A DNA stretch of 64,000 nucleotides from positions 177,878,001-177,942,000 of the forward strand of contig NC_091984.1 in the NCBI RefSeq assembly GCF_044704955.1, given 5' to 3'. The stretch's first letter is position 1. Each line of letters begins with the position of its first letter. Source of the stretch: Pristiophorus japonicus (lineage: Eukaryota). The notes below the pieces were generated by a model. That model had not been told where the DNA came from. It ran no database searches and worked only from the letters and a program-made list of their open reading frames with translations. Made by a program: the position numbers and the translations under genes. Positions 31,221 through 47,921 of this stretch are shown here, piece after piece.

Positions 31221-32344
31221 GGCCAAGAAATCTTGATCGCCTGCTTCCTGTGAGTAAGTGGGTATAACATTTTTTTTTATATGTGCATTTATCTTAGCCT
31301 GCTGCACCCACATGAGGTCGCGGTCCTGAAGCCTCCTCTGACTGTGCTTCACAGCATGTGCATATCAGGATGTGCGCAGGCCTGGATCTGGAGTCACATG
31401 GCTCTGGGCAGCCAATCAGGTATAGTATGTTCTCATTCAAAATAATGGGAACTCTGTAAGTTGGAGTACCCATTATTATGAATGAGAAACAGGCCCCAAA
31501 AACACACAAAACCATAATAGAAAAATAGAAAAAATACACAACGTATTTTTATTAATTTAAATGAAAGTTATTTATGTATTTAAATAATAAATATTTCGCC
31601 GATTTTTAAACAAATTTTTAACTTGTTGGGCATGACGATTTAAATTTCCTGGTCCGGTGTGCTGTCATTGGTCCTTTGGGTGTGTGTTGTGGGCTCGAAA
31701 AAGGTGGTGTCTGGGTTGTTCAGGGCAGTCTGTGAACCGCAGTCTCGTTTGGTCCAGGTGCTTTCTGCAAATTTGTCCATTGTCTAGTTTGACTACAACC
31801 AACCTATGTCCTTCTTTAGCTATCACCGTGCCCGCGATCCACTTGGAACCATGTCCATAGTTTAGCACATACACAGGGTCATTCAGATCAATTTCCTGTG
31901 ACACAATGGCGCGACCATCGTTTACCTTTTGTTGCTGCCGCCTGCTCTCTACCTGATCGTGCAGCTTGGGGTGAACCAGCGAGAGTCTGGTTTTAAGTGT
32001 CCTTTTCATGAGTAGCTCAGCCGGGGGCACCGCTGTGAGCGACTGGGGTCTCGTGCGGTAGCTGAGCAGTACTCGGGACAGGCGGGTTTGGAGTGATCCT
32101 TCTGTGACTCGTTTAAGGGTCTGTTTGATGGTTTGTACTGCCTGCCCATTGGAGGCTGGTTTAAACGGGGCCGAGGTGACATGTTTGATCCCATTGCGGG
32201 TCATGAATTCTTTAAATTCAGCACCGGTGAAACATGGCCATTGTGACTGACCAGTATGTCAGGCAGGCCGTAGGTGGCGAACATGGCCCTCAGGTTTTCA
32301 ATGGTACCAGTGGCAGTGCTTCCCGATATTATTTCACATTCAAT

Positions 32345-33323
32345 AGAAATATAGAAACATAGAAAATAGGTGCAGGAGCAGGCCATTCAGCCCTTCTAGC
32401 CTGCACCGCCATTCAATGAGTTCATGGCTGAACATGAAACTTCAGTACCCCCTTCCTGCTTTCTCGCCATACCCCTTGATCCCCCGAGTAGTAAGGACTT
32501 CATCTAACTCCCTTTTGAATATATTTAGTGAATTGGCCTCAACTACTTTCTGTGGTAGAGAATTCCACAGGTTCACCACTCTCTGGGTGAAGAAGTTTCT
32601 CCTCATCTCGGTCCTAAATGGCTTACCCCTTATCCTTAGACTGTGACCCCTGGTTCTGGACTTCCCCAACATTGGGAACATTCTTCCTGCATCTAACCTG
32701 TCTAAACCCGTCAGAATTTTAAACGTTTCTATGAGGTCCCCTCTCATTCTTCTGAACTCCAGTGAATACAAGCCCAGTTGATCCAGTCTTTCTTGATAGG
32801 TCAGTCCCACCATCCCGGGAATCAGTCTGGTGAATCTTCGCTGCACTCCCTCAATAGCAAGAATGTCCTTCCTCAAGTTAGGAGACCAAAACTGTACACA
32901 ATACTCCAGGTGTGGCCTCACCAAGGCCCTGTACAACTGTAGCAACACCTCCCTGCCCCTGTACTCAAATCCCCTCGCTATGAAGGCCAACATGCCATTT
33001 GCTTTCTTAACCGCCTGCTGTACCTGCATGCCAACCTTCAATGACTGATGTACCATGACACCCAGGTCTCGTTGCACCTTCCCTTTTCCTAATCTGTCTC
33101 CATTCAGATAATAGTCTGTCTCTCTGTTTTTACCACCAAAGTGGATAACCTCACATTTATCCACATTATGCTTCATCTGCCATTCATTTGCCCACTCACC
33201 TAACCTATCCAAGTCACTCTGCAGCCTCATAGCATCCTCCTCGCAGTTCACACTGCCACCCAACTTAGTTTCATCCGCAAATTTGGAGATACTACATTTA
33301 ATCCCTTCGTCTAAATCATTAAT
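32345..33323 (-). mobile_element. Young CR1 3' end inserted in the Gypsy A integrase
   Basis: Uninterrupted 273-aa ORF2 C-terminus (32442-33263); splits DAFSK|(W)IECEI. Confidence 0.95.
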
Positions 33324-36300
33324 GATTTTGAAAAAGCATCCACCACCACCAGGAACATTTTACCGAGAAACGGGCCTGCATAGTCGACATGGATCCTCGA
33401 CCATGGTCTGGAGGGCCAGGACCACAAACATAGTGGTGCCTCTCTGGGCGCGTTGCTCAACTGAGCAAATATGCTGCATTGCTGTACACAGGACACTAAG
33501 TCAGAGTCGATACCGGGCCACCACACGTGGAAACTGGTTATCGCTTTCATCATTACTATACCCAGGTGTGTGCTGTGGAGATCAGAGATGAACGTATCCC
33601 TGCCCTTTTTTGTTAGCACTACGCGGTTATCCCACAACAGGCAGTCTGCCTGAATGGACAGGCCATCCTTTCGCCGCTGGAACAGCTTGATTAGCTCATG
33701 CATTTCAACGGGGATGCTGGTCCAGCTCACATGCAGTACACAGTTTTTTTTACTAGGGACAGCAGAGGATCTTGGCTGGTCCAAGTCCTAATCTGGCGGG
33801 CCGTGACAGGTGATTTATCATTTTCAAATGCTGCCATGACCATCAACAAGTCTGTGGGCTGTGCCACCATCAGTAATTTTGCAGGCTGCGCCATTTCCAC
33901 CCCAGTGGTGGGCAATGGTAGCCGACTGAGAGCATCCGCACAGTTCTCGGTGCCTGGCCTGTTGCGGATAGTATAGTTATATGCTGATAGCGCGAGTGAC
34001 CACCTTTGTATGCGGGCTGAGGCATTAGTATTTATCACCTTGTTTTCAGCGAACAGGGATGTGAGGGGCTTGTGATCGGTTTCCAGGTCCAATTTGAGGC
34101 CAAACAGGTACTGATGCATTTTCCTTACCCTGAACGCACACGCTAATACCTCTTTCTCAATCATGCTGTAGGCCCTCTCGACCTTAGACAAGCTCCTGGA
34201 AGCATAGGTGACAGGTTGAAACATCCTCCCAATATTAGATTGTTTAATAAATATCCGACTCCGTACGACGATACGTGACATGCTAGCACACGTCTTTTAC
34301 ACGGGTTATACAATACAAGCAGCTTGTTGGAGCATAAACTGTTACTTTGTTTTTTCCCCATACCCAGTTCTCACCTTTGCGCAATAACATATGTAGGAGC
34401 TCTAAAAGGGTGCTTAGCCCCGGTAGGAAGTTACCAAAATAGTTGAGGAGTCCCAGGATCGACCACAGCTCCGTTACGTTCTGTGGCCTGGGCGCAATCC
34501 TGATAGCCTCTGTCTTGGCGTCTGTGGGCTGAATGCCATCCTCCGCGATATTTTTCCCCAAAATCTCCACTTCTGTTGCCATGAAGACACATTTCGATCT
34601 CTTCGGCTGCAGCCCTACGTGATCCAGTTGCTGCAGGACCTCCTCCAGGTTTTGTAGGTGCTCGGCGGTGTCCCGAGCCATGACCAATATGTCGTCCTGA
34701 AAGACCACTGTGTGTGGTACCAACTTGAGTAGGCTCTCCATGTTTCTCTGGAAGATCGCTGCAGTCGACCGAATTCGAAACGGGCATCTGTTGGAGATGA
34801 ACAATCCCTTGTGCGTGTTGATGCAGGTGAGGCCCTTCAAAGACTCCTCCAGCTCCTGCGTCTTGTAGGCCGAAGTCAGGTCGAGCTTGGTGAACGTCTT
34901 GCCTCCTGCTAGCATCGTAAATAGGTCGTCTGCCTTAGGTAGCAGGTATCGGTCCTGTAGCGAGAAACAATTAATAGTTACTTTATAATCGATGCAAATC
35001 CTGACCGTGCCATCACTTTTGAGTACTGTAACAATCAGCCTGGCCCACTCTCTGAATTCCACTGGGGAGATGATGCCCTCGCGTTGCAGCCTGTCCAGCT
35101 CTATTTCCACTCTCTCCCTCATCATGTGAGGTACCGCTCGTGCCTTGTGGTGAATGGGTCATGCCTCTGGGACCAAGTGGATCCGCACCTTTGCCCCGGA
35201 AAAGTTTCCAATGCCTGACTCAAAAAGGGAAGGAAATTTGTTAAGAACCTAGTTACATGAGGCCTCATCGACATGTGATAGCGCTCGGATGTCATCCCCC
35301 TTCCAGTGGATTTTGCCCAGCCAGCTCCTTCCATGCAGTGTGGGGCCATCGCCCAGGACAACCCAGAGTGGCAGTTCATGCACTGTGCCCTCGTAGGTAA
35401 CCTTGACCATGGCGCTGCCCAGGACAATGATAAGCTCTTTGGTGTACATTCTCAGTTTCGTGCGGATGGGGCTCAGGGCTGGTCTGAGTACCTTGTTGCA
35501 CCACAATCTCTCAAACATCTTTTTACTCATGATGGATTGGCTAGTGCCAGTGTCCAGTTCCATGGCTATGGGTAAGCCATTGAATTTTACATTTAGCATT
35601 ATAGGTGGGACATTTCGTCGAAAATGTGTGCACCCCGTGTACTTCAGCGTCTGCCTCCTCTCTCTGAGGCTCGAAATTGCTTTGATCCACCATGGACCGA
35701 TCTTCCTCTGCCTCGTTCGAGGTGCCCCATTGTTCCACAGCTCTTGCAAACATACCCTTTGAAGCGGCATGAATAGGCTGAATGGAAGCCTCCACAACGT
35801 CAAAAAGGTGTGAATTGCCTTGCATTCATACTTTGTTGGGGACTCTGAGTCATCTGGGTCACCTGAGGCCTGCAGGCAGTTGCAGACTCATGGGTTCTGC
35901 CATGTTTATTTCTGCTCGCAAACACAGTTCGAGTTAATTTATGAACATTGCTAGCACTTGTGTGCTGAGAGATTTGTTTGGTGTTATCACTAGTGGACAT
36001 AAACGTCTGTGCTATTGCAATGGTCTTACTGAGGGTCGGTGTCTCTAGTCAAAAGTTTTCATAGGATGGTCTCGTGGCCAATGCCCAGTACAAAAAAGTC
36101 TCTGAGCATTTGTTCCAGGTAGCCATCAAACTCACATAGTCCTGCATGTCGCCTTAGCTTGGCAACGTAGCTCGCCACTTCCTGGCATTCAGATCGCTGG
36201 CACGTGTAGAACCGATACCGCGCCACCAGCACGCTCTCCCTCTGGTTAAGATGCTCCTGAACCATTGTACACAGCTCCTCATACAACTTATCTGTGGGTT

Positions 36301-36528
36301 TCACCGGAGCCAGAAGATTCTTCATGAGGCTGTAGGTCGGTGCCCCGCAGACTGTGAGGAGAACCGCTCTCCTTTTTGCAGCACTTCCTTCTCCATCCAG
36401 CTCGTCGGCTACAATGTACTGGTCTAGCCGTTCGACATAGGCTTCCCAGTCCTCACGCTCCAAGAACTTCTCCAGGATGCCCACAGTTTGCTGCATCTTT
36501 ATGTTGGATTCGTATTCTCGTCACCAGT

Positions 36529-36740: not shown

Positions 36741-36787
36741 GATACCACCCCTTATTTCCTTAGTTAGCTACTGATGGTTATCCCTTC

Positions 36788-37446
36788 TGTTAATATGAAT
36801 GTTTTCTCGAAAGAATCACTCAACACTCAGAATCGGTTCCAATGCCAAAGCGGCCTTTTATTATGCCGGCAGGGAGGAAGCCTCTGGTCTAGATCCAGGC
36901 ACCTCTCTCCACCGAACAAAGAAATCCATCGATATTTATATGTTTTACAACAGTTCATTACAGTTACTTCAGCCCATATCGGCTGGACACAATCCAATCA
37001 TAACGATTATAGATTACATATAGATTTCTTTAACCCAATAGAATTCCCCTGAAAACTCAGGGGCTGTATGTTCGGTTCTTGTCAGCTCGGGCTGATTAAT
37101 GACCTTGTTATGTGAGGCAGCCCCCCCCCCCGTTATCTCTGTTCCTCGGGGCTCTACTGTGTGAAGTCATTGATTAAGGACATTCCATACCAGGTACTAT
37201 AATGGTTCGTTATAGTTATCTTGTCTCAAGCGGATGATCCAAGGCATTCCTGGTAGTGGGCCTCACAGGGTCATTGCTCGGTCAGCCTCAGTCAACAGTT
37301 CATTGCTTGACTAACTGAGTTCCCATCATGCTTGGGCAGCCATTTTATATGTGTCCATTTTAAACATATATGCGTATAGATATATTCAGCAGGTGCCTAA
37401 TGCCTAGTGTATATATATATTCAGCAGGTGCCTAATGCCTACAACA
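36788..37446 (-). repeat. ERV 3' LTR (~660 bp) preceded by polypurine tract
   Basis: - strand PPT GAAAGGGGGGAAT (37459-37447) directly followed by TGTTG. TATAAAT near 36935-36941, AATAAA at 36857-36862, ends ...TTAACA at 36788. Internal 26-bp tandem duplication (37381-37406 / 37416-37441). The U5 end is less certain than the U3 end. Confidence 0.75.
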
Positions 37447-37583
37447 ATTCCCCCCTTTCGTTAAAGGGACTAATCCTAGTCCCCCTTTAACTTACCACCC
37501 TACCTTTATCAGATATTGTGCAAGCCCGGTACTCCCTGCCTCAACGTGCTGGCCAGTCACGCGGTTTCAGGAGTCCCGGTTGC

Positions 37584-39648
37584 TTAGATCAAATTGACAA
37601 ACGCCAAATCCTCCTGCCCCTCTATGAGACAGGCTTGTTTAATATCCGGGGACCGGGCATGGGTCCCTCTTCATTGCGCATGGTGTCTGCATGCCTGGCA
37701 GGCCATTATGTCCCATGTTATTATTCGAATCCAAGGATGGATGTTCACATTTATTCCCCAGTCCCAGATCTTTGTCCACCAACTCTGACTTTGTAAGTCT
37801 ACATCGATATCTTCTTCCAGTACTTTGATTTTAGTTTGCAGTTGGTAGTAGAGTTTTATGGATTGACCCACCCGGAGCCTCAATTCCCGTAATACTTCGG
37901 TTGGATGTGGGATAGGGACATGATCTGGCTCGTCATAATCCTGCAAATGATCGTGGAGCTGATCGGTTACAATAACAACTTCGGGCTTCTGGCTCCTAAC
38001 CTGGGTGATATGCGCTTGCCCAATCGTGACAGGTCGTAGCGGCGCAAAGCAAAAGTTCGGCTGTGGTATCGGGCACTGCAGGTCATTATACTGGCATGAA
38101 CGCTCGGTAGTAGAGACGCAGTACCTTCCCTTTCCTCCGTAGCCTGTTCTCGCAAAGTGCCTGTGTGCGGGCACTATTTCTAGTACACATCCATCGGTTC
38201 GGTTAAACCCGCACTCGTCTAGCTCCCCTCGGCCCACCGGGTGGGGACATACTGTGATCTCCCCCCTTTGCTTGCATTCTGTTAGGGAAATCCTGGTAAG
38301 TATATCGTTTTGGCGAACGGTGGAGGTGGTGGTCAGATAGTAACGTATGGAGACATTTTCCCGCATTACTCGATATTCTTCAGTTGGTACAGGGGGAATG
38401 GCCCTGAGTCCGGCGTGGCTATAGGGATCATCAGGACTATCCCTGTCCCAGTAGTCCTACCCATCTGGCAATCTGGAATCGCTGGGTACATTCGGGTCAG
38501 TCCCTTCAGAGTGCACTTATCCAGTGTCCCTCTCTGGTTAGCCAACTGAGCTAAATGTGAACTGTCTATCCAATCGGGTACCTCCCCGCGTTGGATCTGA
38601 TCGAGATTGTGGCGGATCTCTCCCACCATCCACAGACCATAAGCGTGACAGTGTTGCCCCTGTCTTTGTTTTCCAGTATCTTCTCTTTCTCTATCAATGA
38701 GGTGATTGATGGTTTTGGCGTGAGCTTCCAGGACTGAGATGCCATCCAACTGGATTTCGGCACCCTCCTTTCCTAGGTTGGCTTGGTCTTCCTGGTTTTG
38801 CTCCACCCTTTCTAACAACCCCTTCATCACTCCTCTAAGCTGTTCCACCCTCTCGTTTAACTCTTGTATGTCTATCGAGTTCACTACGGAGGTCCCTGTA
38901 TTGAAACCGGTAGCAACATCATTAACTATTCTCCTCTTTATCCTGGGGGCTGACTCCTGTCCTCGGAATCTACTGGCACCCATTGCATCGGCAGCCTGCT
39001 GCATTACAACTCTACTTAATACATTGTACATTTTCCTTTACTGTTCTGTGCAGTATTCCGGCATCTGGATGCCTGAAATATTGATCAGGACAGGCACAAT
39101 TTCATGTTTAACATTATCATACAATTATTCCCCTTCGTTGTACATTACGATCCCATTTTCTGGCCCCTTGGTATTTATCGGACAAGGCAGTTCCTTGGGC
39201 AATGTAGTGGCTCGTACGGGGCGTGACGTCGGCGAAGGGGAGAAGCACACATACAGTGATATTGCAGCCGCTCCCACCTCCTCGTAGTACCCACACAGCC
39301 CCACTCCCATTTTGCGGATGACTGATTGCTGGGACTGTCCCGGAGGTGCGCAAATTATGCCGAAAGTACATTCATCGGGCCCTTTGGCATCCCTCCGTTT
39401 AATGCAGCTGCTCCTTATACCCGTGGAGCACTGAACACATACCCGGTTCTTATTTGGATTCACTTGTAACCATGCATTAAATAAGTCCTGTCCTTGCTCC
39501 AATCCTTAGTCGCTGGGACACACACTCCATCCATCAAATTGAACAAAATTCCATAGTTCATGTGATTGTTTATTTCCAGCGTGCTCTGCTGTCCGTCGGT
39601 GTCGTCCAGGGCTATCCATATTACGAGTAGCATCGTCCGTATTCCCAT
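37584..39648 (-). pseudogene. env: ERV env, foamy-TM/paramyxovirus-F-like class I fusion glycoprotein; disrupted
   Basis: Signal-like MGIRTMLLVIWIAL at 39648; Cys-rich N-terminal domain; Pro/Thr linker; RIKR furin site; fusion-peptide-like IVNDVATGFNTGTSVVNS; heptad repeat; long Cys-rich region; Trp-rich membrane-proximal WWTKIWDW. Stops at 39125, 39038 and 37671; frameshifts near 39500 and 38366. Confidence 0.9.
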
Positions 39649-39755
39649 TCTGATAAGTATTATCTGTAATTTTAAACAGACGGCCTGGTCGTCACCAGGG
39701 GATAGGTTCTGCTCTATGAATATCCTCGTCACCCTGCGAAATCAGAAGTACAAGG

Positions 39756-39956
39756 TTATAGTCGAACCATTTCGAGCTGAATCTGTAGGGCGTGCGCCCG
39801 TGTCTTTTCCCACTTAACTATTACCCAAACTCCTATTACCACCAAGACCAAAGCTATTCCTCCGAATACCCCTTCCAAAAGGGTGTCTAATCACTCCTGG
39901 CATTTTGCAGCATACCATTCTGTCTCGTCTAGGCGTATCACCCTTGGCTCGGCCAT
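39756..39956 (-). pseudogene. Small ERV accessory ORF (66 codons, one internal TGA) encoding a predicted single-pass membrane protein
   Basis: ATG overlaps the pol stop (TAATG, 39958-39954). Reads MAEPRVIRLDETEWYAAKCQE*LDTLLEGVFGGIALVLVVIGVWVIVKWEKTRAHALQIQLEMVRL*. Confidence 0.65.
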
Positions 39957-42145
39957 TACCCTTCTGAGCTATACCTTTTTAATTGCGACCAATGCTTCCA
40001 CCACCCTTTCCCTCTCATATCGACACATGCACACGTGTCGCTAGTCAAAATGATGTCATATGGTCCGGTCCACCTTGGGGCAAACCTCGTCCTGTCGGGG
40101 GTGACTTGTACCAACACTTTGTCGCCTACCTGTGGGAGGTGCGTGTCGGCATTTCCTTTGTTTTGGATCTCCAAGTCCCGAATGATCTGTTGCTCTACCA
40201 CCTCTTTTCTTAGTTCCTTCAACTGTGAATCTAATTGTTTTACATATTGTTTAATCCGACTCGTAAAGGTCCCATGTCCTCTCCCCCCGCTATGATACCT
40301 TCGGGGAGCGTCATGGCCCTCCCCGTCATTAATTCAAAGGGGGTCAGACCTGTGGTCTGGTTAGGGGTGGCCCTAAGTCTCATTCGTATACAGGGTAGAA
40401 CGTCCACCCATTCCTTCCCGGTTTCAGTTATGGCTTTGGCAATTGCTGTCTTAAGGGTACGGTTCATTCGCTCCACCATTCCCGAGCTCTGTGGATGGTA
40501 CAGGATGTGGAACCGTTGTCGGATTCCAAGCAGACCGCATGCCCACTTCATGATCTGACCCGTGAAGTAGGTCCCCTGGTCTGAGTCAATTTGGAGGGGC
40601 ACTCCCCACCGTGGGATTATGTCGAATGCGAGGCTCTGCGCTACGTGGATGCTCCGCAATCCCGGGTGGGAAAAACCTCAACCCACCTGGTAAATTGATC
40701 AATAATGACCAGGCAGTATTTCTTTCCCCGACTGTTGGGTAGGGGCCCTGTGAAATCAATCTGTAGATTCTCCCACGGGCCCCTGGGACGTGTCTGATGT
40801 GCCATTTTGACCTTTATGGGTCTGCCTGGATTATGCTGTGCGCATACTATGCAACGCTGGCAATGCTTGGCTACGTCTCGCCCTACCCCGGGCCACCACC
40901 ATTCTTTGAGTAGACGGCTGAGCATTCCGTCTCACCCAGTGTGGTCCGGCTCATGGTGTAGCCGGAGTAGTTCGGTCTGGATTGAGGACGGGGCAACTAC
41001 TTGTAGTCCCTTCCTCCACACCCCATCCTCCCCAAAGCTGGCCCCTTGGCTTTCCCATAGTGAACGTTCCTCCGAGCTACTCTCTTCCTGTACCTTACGG
41101 ATATTCAGCTCTCCTGGTCCTATCACGGCTACTTTGATTATCTGGGGCTCATCTTCTTCCGCTGCACTTCTGGCTGCTTGATCTGCCAGCATGTTTCCCC
41201 GCTGTTCCCTGCTTTCTACCTTTTGATGCGCCTTGATCTTTATTACTGCTGCCGTAGCGGGTCTTTTAACAGCTCTTACCAACTCCCGAACTATATTCTC
41301 GTGTTTAATGTGCCCCCCTCCTGAGGTTATGTACCCACGTCTGCTCCACGCTATCATGTAGTCGTGTACTACCCCGAATGCGTACCGGCTGTCGGTATAG
41401 ACATTTACACGCTTCCCCTCTGCCCATTTAAGGGCTTCGGTCAACGCTACAAGCTCCGCCACTTGGGCGGACACTGTTCCTTCCAGTGCCCCTCGCAGGA
41501 GGGTGGCACTGTCCTGGTCTACCACACCCCATCCGGTGCGGAATTGCCCGTCGATATATCGTCGGGACCCATCAACGTAAAGGGTTAAATCGGGGTCGCT
41601 CAGAGGTTCATCGGCTATCCCCCCTTCCGTTCCTTGATCTATTTCAGTTTTGCAACTATGGGGTTCGCCTTCGGTCACTATTCCCTCCGCGGGATTAAAA
41701 CCTATATCCCTGATTACTTGTATGGACTGGTCTTTGGGTAATAGTACCGCCTCCCAGGTAGCCCGTCGGGCATCTGACACCGTTTTTAACCTCCCGGTGT
41801 TTAGTAATTCCACTATGGTGTGTTTCTTGTGTAGGATTAGCTGTCCCGACATCGTCACTGGTTCGCATATTCTTGCAGCCCAAGCGGCGCAATCGAGGGC
41901 AGCCACACACCGATGAAGCCCCTTCACTACCGGGGACTCTTGTGTTGCGTAATACGCGACTGGTCTCATTACCCCTCCCTTTTCCTGGGTTATGATGGCG
42001 CTGTAAAAAACCCCCTCGAGATCATAATATACATGGAACGGCTTCATCATGTCAGGTAGCTTCAGCGCCGGGGCTGCCAATAATTCAGCTTTTAATTTCC
42101 CATAGGCTTCTTTTTGCTCCAATCCCCACTCTACCTGCTCTACGT
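39956..42145 (-). pseudogene. pol: ERV pol, 3' part: end of RT, tether (connection) domain, retroviral RNase H, integrase with GPY/F C-terminus; frameshifted
   Basis: ORFs 40932-42122, 40641-40925, 40240-40659 and 39956-40222. Motifs: LKAELLAAPAL..RPVAYY (tether); YVDGS, SAQVAELVAL, YTDSRYAFG, KAH, GNMLAD (RNase H); H-H..CQRCIVC, QIDF, DSDQG, SSGMVERMN (IN D-D-E); WTGPY. Confidence 0.95.
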
Positions 42146-42508
42146 ATCCTTAACGACTACCTACCACCGCTCTGCCCATTGGTCCGACCCTGTTCACAGG
42201 TTTGGATTCCGTTAGTCGCTGTGCACCGCCTGATTCTACCCCAGGGTATATTTCAAATTATTCTACTGGGTCTGGAAGATGTCTTTCGGTATCACGATCC
42301 CACGGTTCAAGTGTGTTCCGGGCACCTACTTAGTTCCTGGCCATCACGTGGGACTAAAGTCCTCTTAATTCATGCTCAGGCTAGGTGTTTGAGATATTGG
42401 ACCATCTCCTCATGTCGATCAACCAGCATCCACCTTCGGCACCCGTTATAAAATTTTTGTTTAAGGTATACTCACCCGGTTTCTCCAAGGGCATTTAGCG
42501 ACTTCAGA

Positions 42509-42526
42509 ATCCTGTTCATGACGCCA
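42509..42526 (-). promoter_or_regulatory. ERV primer-binding site complementary to tRNA-Ser
   Basis: + strand GAATCCTGTTCATGACGCCA (42507-42526) matches, as I recall the sequence, the 3' end of a vertebrate tRNA-Ser(CGA) (GAATCCTGTTCGTGACG-CCA) with one mismatch. On the - strand it follows ...TAACA-G. Confidence 0.8.
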
Positions 42527-42565
42527 CTGTTAGCGTGAAGGCTCGCTTTAAATAGCAAAAGGGAC

Positions 42566-42753
42566 TCATTGGATATATTCAAGAGGGAGTTAGATATGGC
42601 CCTTACGGTTAAGGGGATCAAGGGGTATGGAGAGAAAGCAGGAAAGGGGTACTGAAGGAATGATCAGCCTTGATCTTATTGAATGGCGGTGCAGGCTCGA
42701 AGGGCCGAATGGCCTCCTCCTGCACCTATTTTCTATGTTTCTATGTTTCTATG
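42566..42753 (+). mobile_element. CR1 3' terminal fragment next to the ERV 5' end
   Basis: ggctcgaagggccgaatggcctcctcctgcacctattttctatgtttctatgtttctatg. Confidence 0.9.
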
Positions 42754-44729: not shown

Positions 44730-45265
44730 TAACAACAATAATGACAACTTGCAATTATATAGCGCATTGAACATAGATAGTAAAGCGTGCCAACACGCTT
44801 CACAGACGAATCATCAAACACTATTTTTTCACTAAGACACATCAGGATTTATTAGGGCAGAAAAGCTAGGTGTTAAGGAGTGTCTTAAAGGAGGAAAGGG
44901 AGCCATAGAGCTGGAGACGTTTATGGAAGAATTTCCAAAGCTAATGGCCTGGCAGATGGAGACTCGGTGGCCAATAGTGGAGCGATTAAAATCGGGAATG
45001 CTCAAGAGACTAGAATTGGAAGATCACAGATATCTCGGATGGGTGTAAGGCTGCAAGGAATTACAAAGATAGGGTGGGGTCCTGGAGAGATTTGGAAACA
45101 AGGATCAGAATTTCATAATCGAGGTGTTGCTCAACCGGGAGCCAATGTAACATTTGGATGAGCTCAAGTATACTCAGGGAGATAATGGGAGGACTGCGAG
45201 GAGCGTGATAGAATAGTCAGATGAGCTGCGCCAGGTACGGAGTCAGGCGATGCGATGGAAATCAT
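44730..45265 (-). mobile_element. L2-clade LINE 3' end
   Basis: aacaacaat..aacttgcaattatatagcgc..cgcttcacag tail. Confidence 0.75.
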
Positions 45266-45267
45266 AA

Positions 45268-45805
45268 TAAACATAGAAACATAGAAAATAGGTGCAGAAG
45301 CAGGCCAATCTGCCCATCGAGCCTGCACCACCATTCAATATGATCATGGCTGATCATGCAACTTCAGTACCCCACTCCTGCCTTCTCTCCATACCCGCTG
45401 AACACTTTAGCCATAAGGGCCACATCTAACCCCCTTTTGAATATATCCAACGAACTGGACTCAATAACTTTCTGTGGTAGAGAATTCCATATTTTCGCAA
45501 TTCTCTGGGTGAAAAAGTTTCTCCTCATCTCGGTCCTAAATGGCTTACCCTTTATCCTTAGACTCTGACTCCTGGTTCTGGACTTCGCCAAAATCGGGAA
45601 CATTCTTCCTGCATCTAACCTATCCAATCCCCTCGGAATTTTATATGCTTCAATGAGATCCCCTCTCATTCTTCTAAATTCCAGTGAAAATAAGCCTATT
45701 CGATCCAGTCTTTCTTCATATGTCAGTCCTGCCATCGCGGGAATCAATCTGGTGAACCGTCGCTGAACTCCCTCAATAGCAAGAATGTCCTTCAATAGCA
45801 AGAAT
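45268..45805 (-). mobile_element. CR1 LINE 3' end
   Basis: ORF 45364-45801 KDILAIEGVQRRFTRLIP; (catagaaa)n tail. Confidence 0.93.
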
Positions 45806-47921
45806 AATACAATATACAGAAAGCTACTGCGAAAAATAAGCTCTCCTCAAGCATCACCAAGTTATAAAGAAACCGTCCCCTTATCTTAAAAGTTCCTCCA
45901 TCAATCATTTATAATTAATTCTGAATAAGTATTTTTTTTGTAACCTTCAATTATACCAATATCAGTGTTATTGCACAAGATCCAAATCCTAAATGTTGGA
46001 ATTCCAAAATAATATATCCCTCTCTACTTTAGGCATCAGTGTGTTTAAATCTACCTTGAATCTTTCCTCAATTTGTACTGAAGGATTTAGGACTTTTCGA
46101 CATAGATTTTTCACTTGCTAAAGGAGCAAGGCTTGGTCCATCATATGATGAAAGAGAGACCTGTTAGATTTGACTGTAGAAGTTGGCATTATGGGAAGCT
46201 TGGGAAGTTCGAAAAATATTTTTCAGATTATTTAGAAGGCTAACTGAGAGGATGTACTTTCTCGGACCTAAGTAGCAATCTTAAGGATAGGATAACAGCT
46301 TAGCTAGGCCTTGACAGTCTGAGGAAACTGTTGTAAACTGAAATGCTGTAGCAATAGCTTTTTTGAGCCAAGGAATAGAGGGAAGCGGAAGGTAGCAGCA
46401 GCTTGCTTTTGCCAGCGAGAAGGGTACAACATGAACCATTCTCAAATAAAAAGAGAAAGACCAGAGAGAGCGTAATGTATAAGTATTTCTATAAAGGTTA
46501 GGCGAGGCCATATGTTGCTTATCCTCGTTTTATTGCCTATACCAGTTAAACAGGAGTTCCGGGACTCAGAGCTGAGAGATCCAAAGGTCACTAACCAACA
46601 GCCTGGACACATGCAAGACACGTGATGGAGACACAGACGCCAGACACGCAATAAAATTCGTATTTTTCGTTGCATCCTTTCCCTCACAGAAGAAAATATA
46701 ATGTGTACTCGTTTCAAACGACAAATATTACATTGTTTTTCCTCATCTTCAAAAAATGTGTACATATAATGGAACTCTAAAATGTAACCAAAACAAAACA
46801 CACAATCACAAAGAGGCACTCTGCAAATCATAGTGCTTCAGTCGAGCTGGAGGCTTTCACTGTCTTCCAGATCTGTGATCTGCTATTGGTTTCTGAATAC
46901 CGGGTTGTTTCCGGTGTTTTAGGTGTCGTCACAGGACTTGGAGACTGTAGACAGTTTAGAGGACATCTGAGGACCTGCGCTCCAGAAAAGGCCTCCATCT
47001 GAGGACTGTTGTTTACAGGCGACTCATCAGAATAGATCAATTGACACCATTTCCTCTGGCATGACGAGCCTCCTGCTTACACGCCGAAGCTTCTAGGATC
47101 TATCACACTTGTGCATATACCAGCACTCCAAGTACTCTGGCCAGGGAGTTTCATCCACACTGTATCACCAAGATCTATTGCTTGAAGTGCTGCAGCATGT
47201 ATACTGACGTTGTTTCATGTCGGCAAGGGCAAAAGTGTCTTCCTCAGTCGAATATCGACGCAGCAGAGTGTTTCAGCTATAAGAAATAGATGTCTTGCAT
47301 CTACGAACCATAAGTCTCTGTACAGAGCATGGGTCAACACTTTCATTTGATCTAATAGAGCTAAGAACTCTGACTGGCCGGTCTCTTTGCTTTTCATCAA
47401 GAGCAATTTGATGGTTTTGATGGTAACCTTGGCTTTGCCATCGGACTGCGGCTACTGAGGTGACGTAGTTCCGCCTTAAAATCCCCATGTCTTGTCAAAT
47501 ACTGCAAAATGCGCTGACGCGAATTGTGTATCATTAACTGAAACTGGTAGTTCAAATGTCACAAAGATTTCTTGAGTTCTCTCAGAACACTGTTTGTAGT
47601 AACTGAAGTGAGCCTGACTACTTAGATGCAGTTAACGTAGCAATCGCACATGACGAGCCGGGTGCGGCAATTTGGCTCACAAACGTCAGCATCAATCTTT
47701 GACCAAGGCCCATCTTCAATCTCCTGATATACTAGTGGTTCCTTACTTGGAGAACTGTAATGAGCCCTGTTAAAGTCCTGGACCAATAGAGGCTGTCATG
47801 GGTTCTGAGGATACAATCTTCAATGCCAGTGTCCATTGAATGTGCGAATAACATTAATTCCTTGCTTAGTGCAGCTGGCACTACGAGTTGCTGTCCCTTG
47901 AATATCAATTCATGATGGATC

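Follow-up and report, generated by a model that had tools for sequence, protein, structure and literature searches.

A family of endogenous retroviruses (ERVs) in the shark Pristiophorus japonicus carries, between pol and env, a small open reading frame (ORF) that is almost certainly a real gene under selection, judging from how its codons vary among copies. It would be an accessory gene for a membrane protein, apparently undescribed in the openly accessible literature. Taken as a whole, the reading that we favour is a little likelier to be right than wrong: an accessory gene whose product crosses the membrane once, N-terminus out and C-terminus in, is translated from a spliced RNA of its own and acts as a membrane adaptor beside Env. 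The copy from which the analysis started lies in a stretch of 64,000 nucleotides, referred to here as the window.

The provirus in the window (Table 1) is a deleted one, with the 5′ LTR end, primer-binding site and leader fused straight to the RT tether, with gag, protease and most of RT absent, and with an env disrupted by stops, frameshifts and deletions. As the preliminary description had noticed, a 66-codon frame interrupted by a single TGA at codon 22 follows pol, and its ATG (39956-39954, -) overlaps the pol stop (TAA, 39958-39956, -), whose last A it shares; the frame closes with a TAA of its own (39758-39756, -). The same description saw a hydrophobic stretch flanked by KWEKTR and an acceptor-like site about 20 nt past the ORF, and both are present (AG at 39735-39734, 22 nt after the stop). 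It also had the ORF almost exactly filling a gap of about 200 nt between pol and env; the frame is there, but pol stop and env ATG (39648) are separated by about 310 nt, 200 of them taken up by the ORF. Likewise, the N-terminal segment does have the net negative charge described, but the single Cys mentioned with it, Cys19, is private to the window copy (0/29 others). Shuffling of the gap in the window copy gave an ATG-led frame of at least 66 codons with at most one stop in 772 of 5000 trials. A frame of this kind in a single copy is therefore within chance, and the case for the ORF rests on the family.

Table 1. Features of the provirus in the window.
Feature	Position	Strand	Remark
Small accessory ORF, 66 codons + stop	39756..39956	-	Broken here by TGA at codon 22 (39893-39891)
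Predicted transmembrane helix, residues 29-47, GxxxG at its start	39816..39872	-	Acidic/neutral before, basic after
TAATG, pol stop overlapping ORF start	39954..39958	-	A/AB branch only
33-nt synonymously frozen block in integrase, CAG end	40223..40255	-	Candidate ORF splice acceptor (putative)
Donor-like GT, 21 nt past frozen block	40196..40207	-	A copies: weak; AB, B and C: strong in many
Branch-point-like motif + pyrimidine tract + AG directly past ORF stop	39733..39758	-	First acceptor towards env
Second acceptor, 15 nt ahead of env ATG	39663..39700	-	One contig and one public gene model join it to a leader donor
env, own ATG, signal-peptide-like start, furin-like site at 38944-38930	37584..39648	-	Probably F-type, by language-model features
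pol remnant: tether, RNase H, integrase with MLV-type C-terminal domain	39956..42141	-	Broken in window copy
5′ LTR end, primer-binding site, leader with two donors (42475, 42164)	42136..42536	-	
Polypurine tract + 3′ LTR	36787..37458	-	

A decayed LTR retrotransposon, in which pieces of gag, protease, RT, RNase H and integrase could be recognized by inspection, adjoins the provirus at 33311-36520 (-) and is presumably Ty3/gypsy-like. The window also holds LINE pieces at 32340-33100, near 42600-42720 and at 45262-45850, which we take to be CR1-like.

Family members are numerous. The genome yielded 1591 candidates by DNA search (40 of them scored) and 2641 by search with the small protein (150 of them scored); with thousands of candidate copies, some having identical LTRs, the evolution of the gene is measurable. 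Related copies are organized LTR-gag-pol-ORF-env-LTR and have two zinc knuckles. The RT is MLV-like and is accompanied by RNase H and an integrase C-terminal domain, with gag and pol in one frame separated by a stop: pol lay in frame behind a TGA in 13/13 copies read, and it is at this TGA that gag-pol readthrough would occur. Scores of the pol were 345 bits with XMRV/MLV, 182 with Ty3 and 148 with foamy virus; MLV was far ahead of the other solved matches, in a comparison set without a loki sequence. On these scores, rather than on a tree of reference viruses, the family is placed among the class I (gamma/epsilon-like) ERVs. Its primer-binding site (42510-42526 in the window) resembles, we assume, the 3′ end of tRNA-Ser.

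To judge the ORF, we turned to the other copies. In the 29 closest of them, codon 22 is a sense codon in every case (29/29) and the frame is open for 66 codons in 23, while TAATG is kept in 30/30 close copies. Across all groups the full-length ORF is open in 47/75 copies; since copies were sampled by their similarity to the ORF region, such open fractions are biased upward, the ratios given below being unaffected. Subfamilies B1, B2 and C encode a 79-residue version with 50-56% protein identity, and the two forms differ by an in-frame indel of 13 codons in the tail, both ends being conserved. Between distant subfamilies the dN/dS of the ORF was 0.17, 0.20, 0.10 and 0.28, and in the closest pair 0.51 (counted per column over 56 of 75 aligned copies, with 19 near-duplicates omitted), compared to 0.12-0.22 for env and 0.03-0.07 for pol. 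Values below 1 throughout (0.10-0.51) were confined to the ORF frame; the other two frames of the region gave 0.60-2.37 and contain stops, whereas no group in the ORF alignment has a stop column. Selection acts on N-terminus, helix and tail, and the stop codon and C-terminal motif are conserved.

Private variants numbered 81 nonsynonymous to 25 synonymous, compared to 19 to 30 for variants shared by at least three copies (p=1e-5; three groups, 46 copies). This contrast is the pattern to be expected of neutral decay after insertion combined with selection during replication. The expectations set out in the preliminary description for other copies, namely a sense codon at position 22, a retained ATG and a dN/dS below 1, were thus all borne out, and with them its proposal of a selected accessory gene for a small single-pass membrane protein.

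The ORF is lacking in sister families with a related pol. A sister lineage in the same genome, with a pol 49% identical, has two other env types, one with a gamma-type motif (6/20 sister-family loci). Its gap between pol and env measures 116-137 nt, and no ATG-led frame of more than 25 codons was found there (14 of 20 loci, those in which both ends of the gap could be located). In this sister pol lineage (loci L126-L145) the gamma-type env belongs to one subgroup and an unrelated type to the other, and env must therefore have been swapped at least twice in the clade. A search for more distant ORF-bearing families, starting from a piece of Mustelus Env, returned known groups only.

Two kinds of derived element are also found. 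In a sample of 25 elements chosen by env, 22 were pol-less, 2 had pol and the full ORF, and 1 had lost nearly all of the ORF. The pol-less elements keep just the helix and tail of the small protein, behind an internal ATG, the first 29 ORF codons being gone; shared variants in this shortened ORF numbered 4 nonsynonymous and 3 synonymous. In this very numerous group gag-pol has been swapped for about 2 kb of unrelated sequence (loci L081-L092, L100 and L102-L125), its env is under purifying selection (shared variants 16 nonsynonymous, 30 synonymous), and two copies (L102 and L111) are recombinants with an A-type tail. The other kind is a young non-autonomous subgroup with 40 equal-scoring matches, of which four were read (L043-L046; LTR pairs 99.6-100% identical). 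Most of its gag has been exchanged for AT-rich filler, and pol and env have frameshifts, often at lengthened runs of A; the small ORF was intact in the four copies read despite the pol frameshift upstream.

The predicted protein is simple in plan. The best hydrophobic 19-mer covers residues 29-47 in 13 of 14 aligned proteins and 34-52 in the remaining one, and the net charge is negative before the helix and positive after it in all 14, a distribution that on charge alone suggests an N-out/C-in topology. AlphaFold returned a single long continuous helix (pLDDT 81). Among the 47 open copies P4, E11, W14, Y19, E21, G29, F31, G33 and W49 are invariant, so that the GxxxG formed by G29 and G33 is found in 47/47, while 42/47 end in EMVRL or a close variant and 42/47 have at least three K/R after the helix. 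The best-conserved parts lie outside the helix, namely the N-terminal segment with its aromatic residues and the five C-terminal positions, and no conserved polar residue was found within the helix (residues 29-47).

We found no homologue of the small protein outside this genome. It matched nothing in Pfam, among PDB sequences, in the ESM Atlas or among viral folds, and a comparison with 5.8 billion proteins gave 486 candidates, none at E<=1. The sole match among 1.84 billion representatives, a Cys/Trp-rich repeat protein scored over 10 repeats, was rejected.

How would such a protein be made? Within integrase, the family copies share a synonymously frozen block, a run of 11 invariant codons that none of 20000 permutations reached, with no other run as long as five across the 734 informative codons of pol. 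Synonymous constraint gives way at a CAG located 266 nt upstream of the ORF ATG; at the matching codon, ORF-less sister families have CAA in 14 of 16 cases and CAG in none. The preliminary description had looked to a dedicated splice acceptor upstream of the ORF, and the frozen block with its CAG provides a candidate, whereas the acceptor just past the ORF lies downstream and cannot serve it. We point out that the block is A-rich and has no pyrimidine tract, and that an acceptor score did not pick it out. The pol-less elements, which are the commonest carriers of env (22/25), copy well without the block, indicating that copying does not require it in cis. An in-frame micro-exon would be formed by the 21 nt from the block to the donor-like GT (40202-40222, -); small regulatory exons occur in lentiviral pol. 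Two further sites were considered, one acceptor-like (173 nt upstream) and one donor-like (ORF nt 41); both are explained by conserved codons and were set aside.

One contig joins a leader donor to the acceptor just ahead of the env ATG, with GT..AG ends, skipping the ORF, and a public shark gene model has the identical leader-to-env junction. The ORF is not on the main env RNA, a point on which the contig would be weak alone, having only 27 letters on its short side and coming from a run of unrecorded kind. Contigs from two runs of unrecorded kind cover the ORF, and the lack among them of a joint into its upstream region or at the CAG is uninformative either way. A rise in depth over the 3′ half of the ORF was discarded as evidence of expression; it coincides with the loose end of the pol-less junction type.

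We consider it an evenly balanced proposition that the ORF is translated from its own spliced RNA. A leader donor would be spliced to the CAG that closes the frozen block. Between the block and the ORF lie 2-6 AUGs in 48/48 block-bearing copies, one of them in strong context in 10/48, and the ORF AUG has a purine at -3 in 55 of the 56 copies counted. Ribosomes would reach this AUG in its good context by leaky scanning past the weaker ones. Alternatively or in addition, they would restart after a mini-ORF of 17-20 codons, which an integrase Met about 60 nt upstream opens in 48/48 block-bearing copies and which ends at the pol stop; a restart of this kind would explain why stop and start have stayed adjacent.

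The same gene might instead be expressed from unspliced genomic RNA, by termination-reinitiation after Gag-Pol, with the frozen block as an upstream reinitiation element, which we regard as possible and rather unlikely. The proximity of stop and start speaks for it: the pol stop lies no more than 8 nt from the ORF ATG in every group, overlapping it as TAATG in 40/41 A-type copies and preceding it by 4 nt in 18/19 C copies, by 7 nt in 5/7 B1 copies and by 7-8 nt in B copies. This model also sidesteps the problem of the upstream AUGs. Exact spacing of stop and start is dispensable in BM2, according to the accessible part of PMC3035654, and reinitiation without the calicivirus motif is described for RSV, CHV1 and SART1 in the parts consulted of PMC10275272 and PMC5972666. 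However, the sequences expected to drive the process are not apparent. UGGGA, given in what was available of PMC3035654 as the core of known reinitiation signals (motif 1, some 40-90 nt upstream), occurs within 120 nt upstream in 2/56 copies, both times at -108. Synonymous constraint is absent from the last 120 nt of pol (3/23 codons invariant vs. 41/185 elsewhere), and no consistently stable fold was found in the last 110-120 nt.

Output is a further difficulty for reinitiation: as pol lies in frame behind a TGA, it is presumably a minor readthrough product, and very little of the small protein would result. Moreover, the purine at -3 that the family keeps is reportedly unneeded in reinitiation of the TURBS type, as far as the sources consulted go, and the young 40-copy subgroup has an intact ORF behind a frameshifted pol (four copies read). 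The coupling of pol to the ORF through TAATG, as first proposed, therefore stands as an overlap in the A/AB branch, is missing from B and C copies (0/19 in C-type), and does not establish reinitiation.

Env gives the ORF its context. Its relatives were found in sharks only (8 proteins), those of Mustelus, Heterodontus and Chiloscyllium being 47-73% identical; it matched nothing in Pfam or PDB, with no retroviral Env family among the Pfam results, and the gamma-type Env was not found in the ORF-bearing family. In language-model features it matches Fusion_gly and Baculo_F clusters at 0.91-0.92, where recognition is low, and its structure model has a pLDDT of 31. In its apparent layout a furin site comes first, ahead of long helices, a beta region rich in Cys and a helix at the C-terminus. 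We take Env to be likely of F type, on the lead of the language model. The pairing of an F-type env with an MLV-like pol may itself be undescribed, and would bear on how retroviruses swap their entry machinery. The spacer between the two env acceptors (39649-39733, -) is conserved, with a second CTAAC-type motif and a dN/dS of 0.24-0.54 in the env frame; in several groups its phase-0 reading is an exon of 13 codons with PNxW-stop at the end, and a further spliced product from it is possible.

The ORF accompanies the F-like env type, and sister lineages with other env types are without it. This co-occurrence may be mere linkage from one recombination. One could go further and see the small membrane protein and the F-type fusion protein as a two-gene cassette that replaces the ordinary env of the sister lineages and parallels, in a retrovirus, the pairing of SH with F in negative-strand viruses. 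The small protein would then be a dedicated Env cofactor or an independent fusogen, its expression relying on a restart at the pol stop that needs no motif and is guided by an element 270-300 nt upstream. We judge this combination unlikely.

As to function, we lean towards an adaptor, rather than a channel or fusogen, as the probable role, because conservation lies outside the helix, pore residues are missing and the ORF is tied to an env type. In this scheme the protein would self-associate through GxxxG, and its aromatic N-terminal helix and EMVRL-type tail would serve, during assembly and release, to bind Env or one of the host's membrane proteins, as Vpu or SH do. Weighing against our preferred explanation as a whole, pol-less elements have spread with the start of the ORF missing and one element is left with almost none of it; neither homologues nor fold matches hint at a function; and env has four invariant runs, one of them of 11 codons, so that such runs are not unique to the block within the element.

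Of the two roles that the preliminary description had suggested, that of a restriction-factor antagonist is a conjecture, and that of a viroporin, an oligomeric ion channel easing entry or release like M2, BM2 and SH, we find doubtful. Size, a single helix, N-out topology and GxxxG all match the viroporin class, and the ORF, like SH, has an F-like fusion gene as its neighbour. However, polar or ionisable residues like those in the HxxxW of M2 and BM2 are not conserved in the helix, the residues that selection holds most firmly are in the N-terminal segment and the last five positions rather than in the membrane, and the searches of PDB and of viral folds gave no match.

A small fusogen of the FAST/sORF2 type, promoting cell-to-cell spread, is very unlikely, although the protein has the features by which, in the part of the preprint consulted, sORF2 was screened for (60-210 aa, one helix, N-out, polybasic; 42/47) and some insect sORF2 genes sit downstream of pol. 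The myristoylation motif MGxxxS/T is absent (0/47 open copies), the amphipathic moment is only modest (0.12-0.28), and the sORF2 elements described there have no env, whereas the ORF travels with one. Finally, that the frame encodes no separate protein, having arisen by chance or serving env as first exon or leader, is extremely improbable: the chance frequency noted above, a phase-2 site resembling a donor that most scored copies have at ORF nt 41, and the dN/dS of the spacer in the env frame would fit it, but N-terminus, helix and tail are equally selected up to a conserved stop and C-terminal motif, the pol-env ORF frame alone is selected while the others have stops, splicing from nt 41 to the first acceptor creates a stop in B and C copies, and env has its own signal-peptide-like start, with public shark Env models containing no ORF residues. 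A leader split off from env by a frameshift was rejected in view of the family copies together with this start and these models.

Among known systems, the A branch resembles influenza B BM2 and calicivirus VP2 in its UAAUG overlap ahead of a small membrane protein (PMC3035654, in the part accessible). It differs from them in that the overlap is not family-wide, UGGGA is not conserved, the upstream ORF is a minor readthrough product and HxxxW is absent. The lokiretroviruses share the gag-pol-env order and a dual RNase H, and have an env like paramyxovirus F, which the shark Env may resemble, as described in the accessible part of PMC7947760; there, their RT is sister to all other retroviruses, a placement apparently different from that of the shark pol, which scores highest against MLV/XMRV (345 bits), and neither a lokiretrovirus from cartilaginous fish nor one with a small membrane ORF is reported in that part.

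Fish retroviruses provide further points of comparison. The acc3/acc4 genes of foamy-like fish ERVs are likewise pol-env accessory ORFs under purifying selection, and are likewise not assigned a function in the accessible parts of PMC5210030 and PMC5512871; unlike the shark ORF, they are 334-465 aa long, are reported without a TM motif, and go with a foamy-type pol and mostly a tRNA-Lys primer. No ORF separates pol from env in infectious fish retroviruses, as the part of PMC5210030 available implies. Among complex retroviruses of fish, snakehead retrovirus has small ORFs that lie on subgenomic RNAs, ORF1 having 52 aa (PMC12193657, part accessible), and no homology of the small protein to this ORF1 was found. 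The accessible parts of an elephant-shark ERV paper (PMC4422223) and of a preprint on anamniote Env mention no such gene. Insect sORF2 and other FAST-like proteins are alike in size (63-107 aa), in having one helix, N-out, with a polybasic flank, and in that some follow pol (bioRxiv 10.1101/2025.03.14.642691, part accessible). The shark ORF is distinguished from these by the missing myristoylation motif, the presence of env and its setting in a vertebrate class I element.

HIV-1 Vpu is a protein of about 80 residues with a helix near its N-terminus and a cytoplasmic tail, encoded just before env and sharing the env mRNA. The shark product has no sequence or fold match to it, has a longer luminal N-terminus and a short basic tail, belongs with a class I rather than a lentiviral pol, and is skipped by the env joint. 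It is nonetheless like Vpu in being a small protein with one helix and a cytoplasmic tail, encoded directly ahead of env, suggesting that Vpu/SH-like proteins arose independently in the retroviruses of cartilaginous fish.
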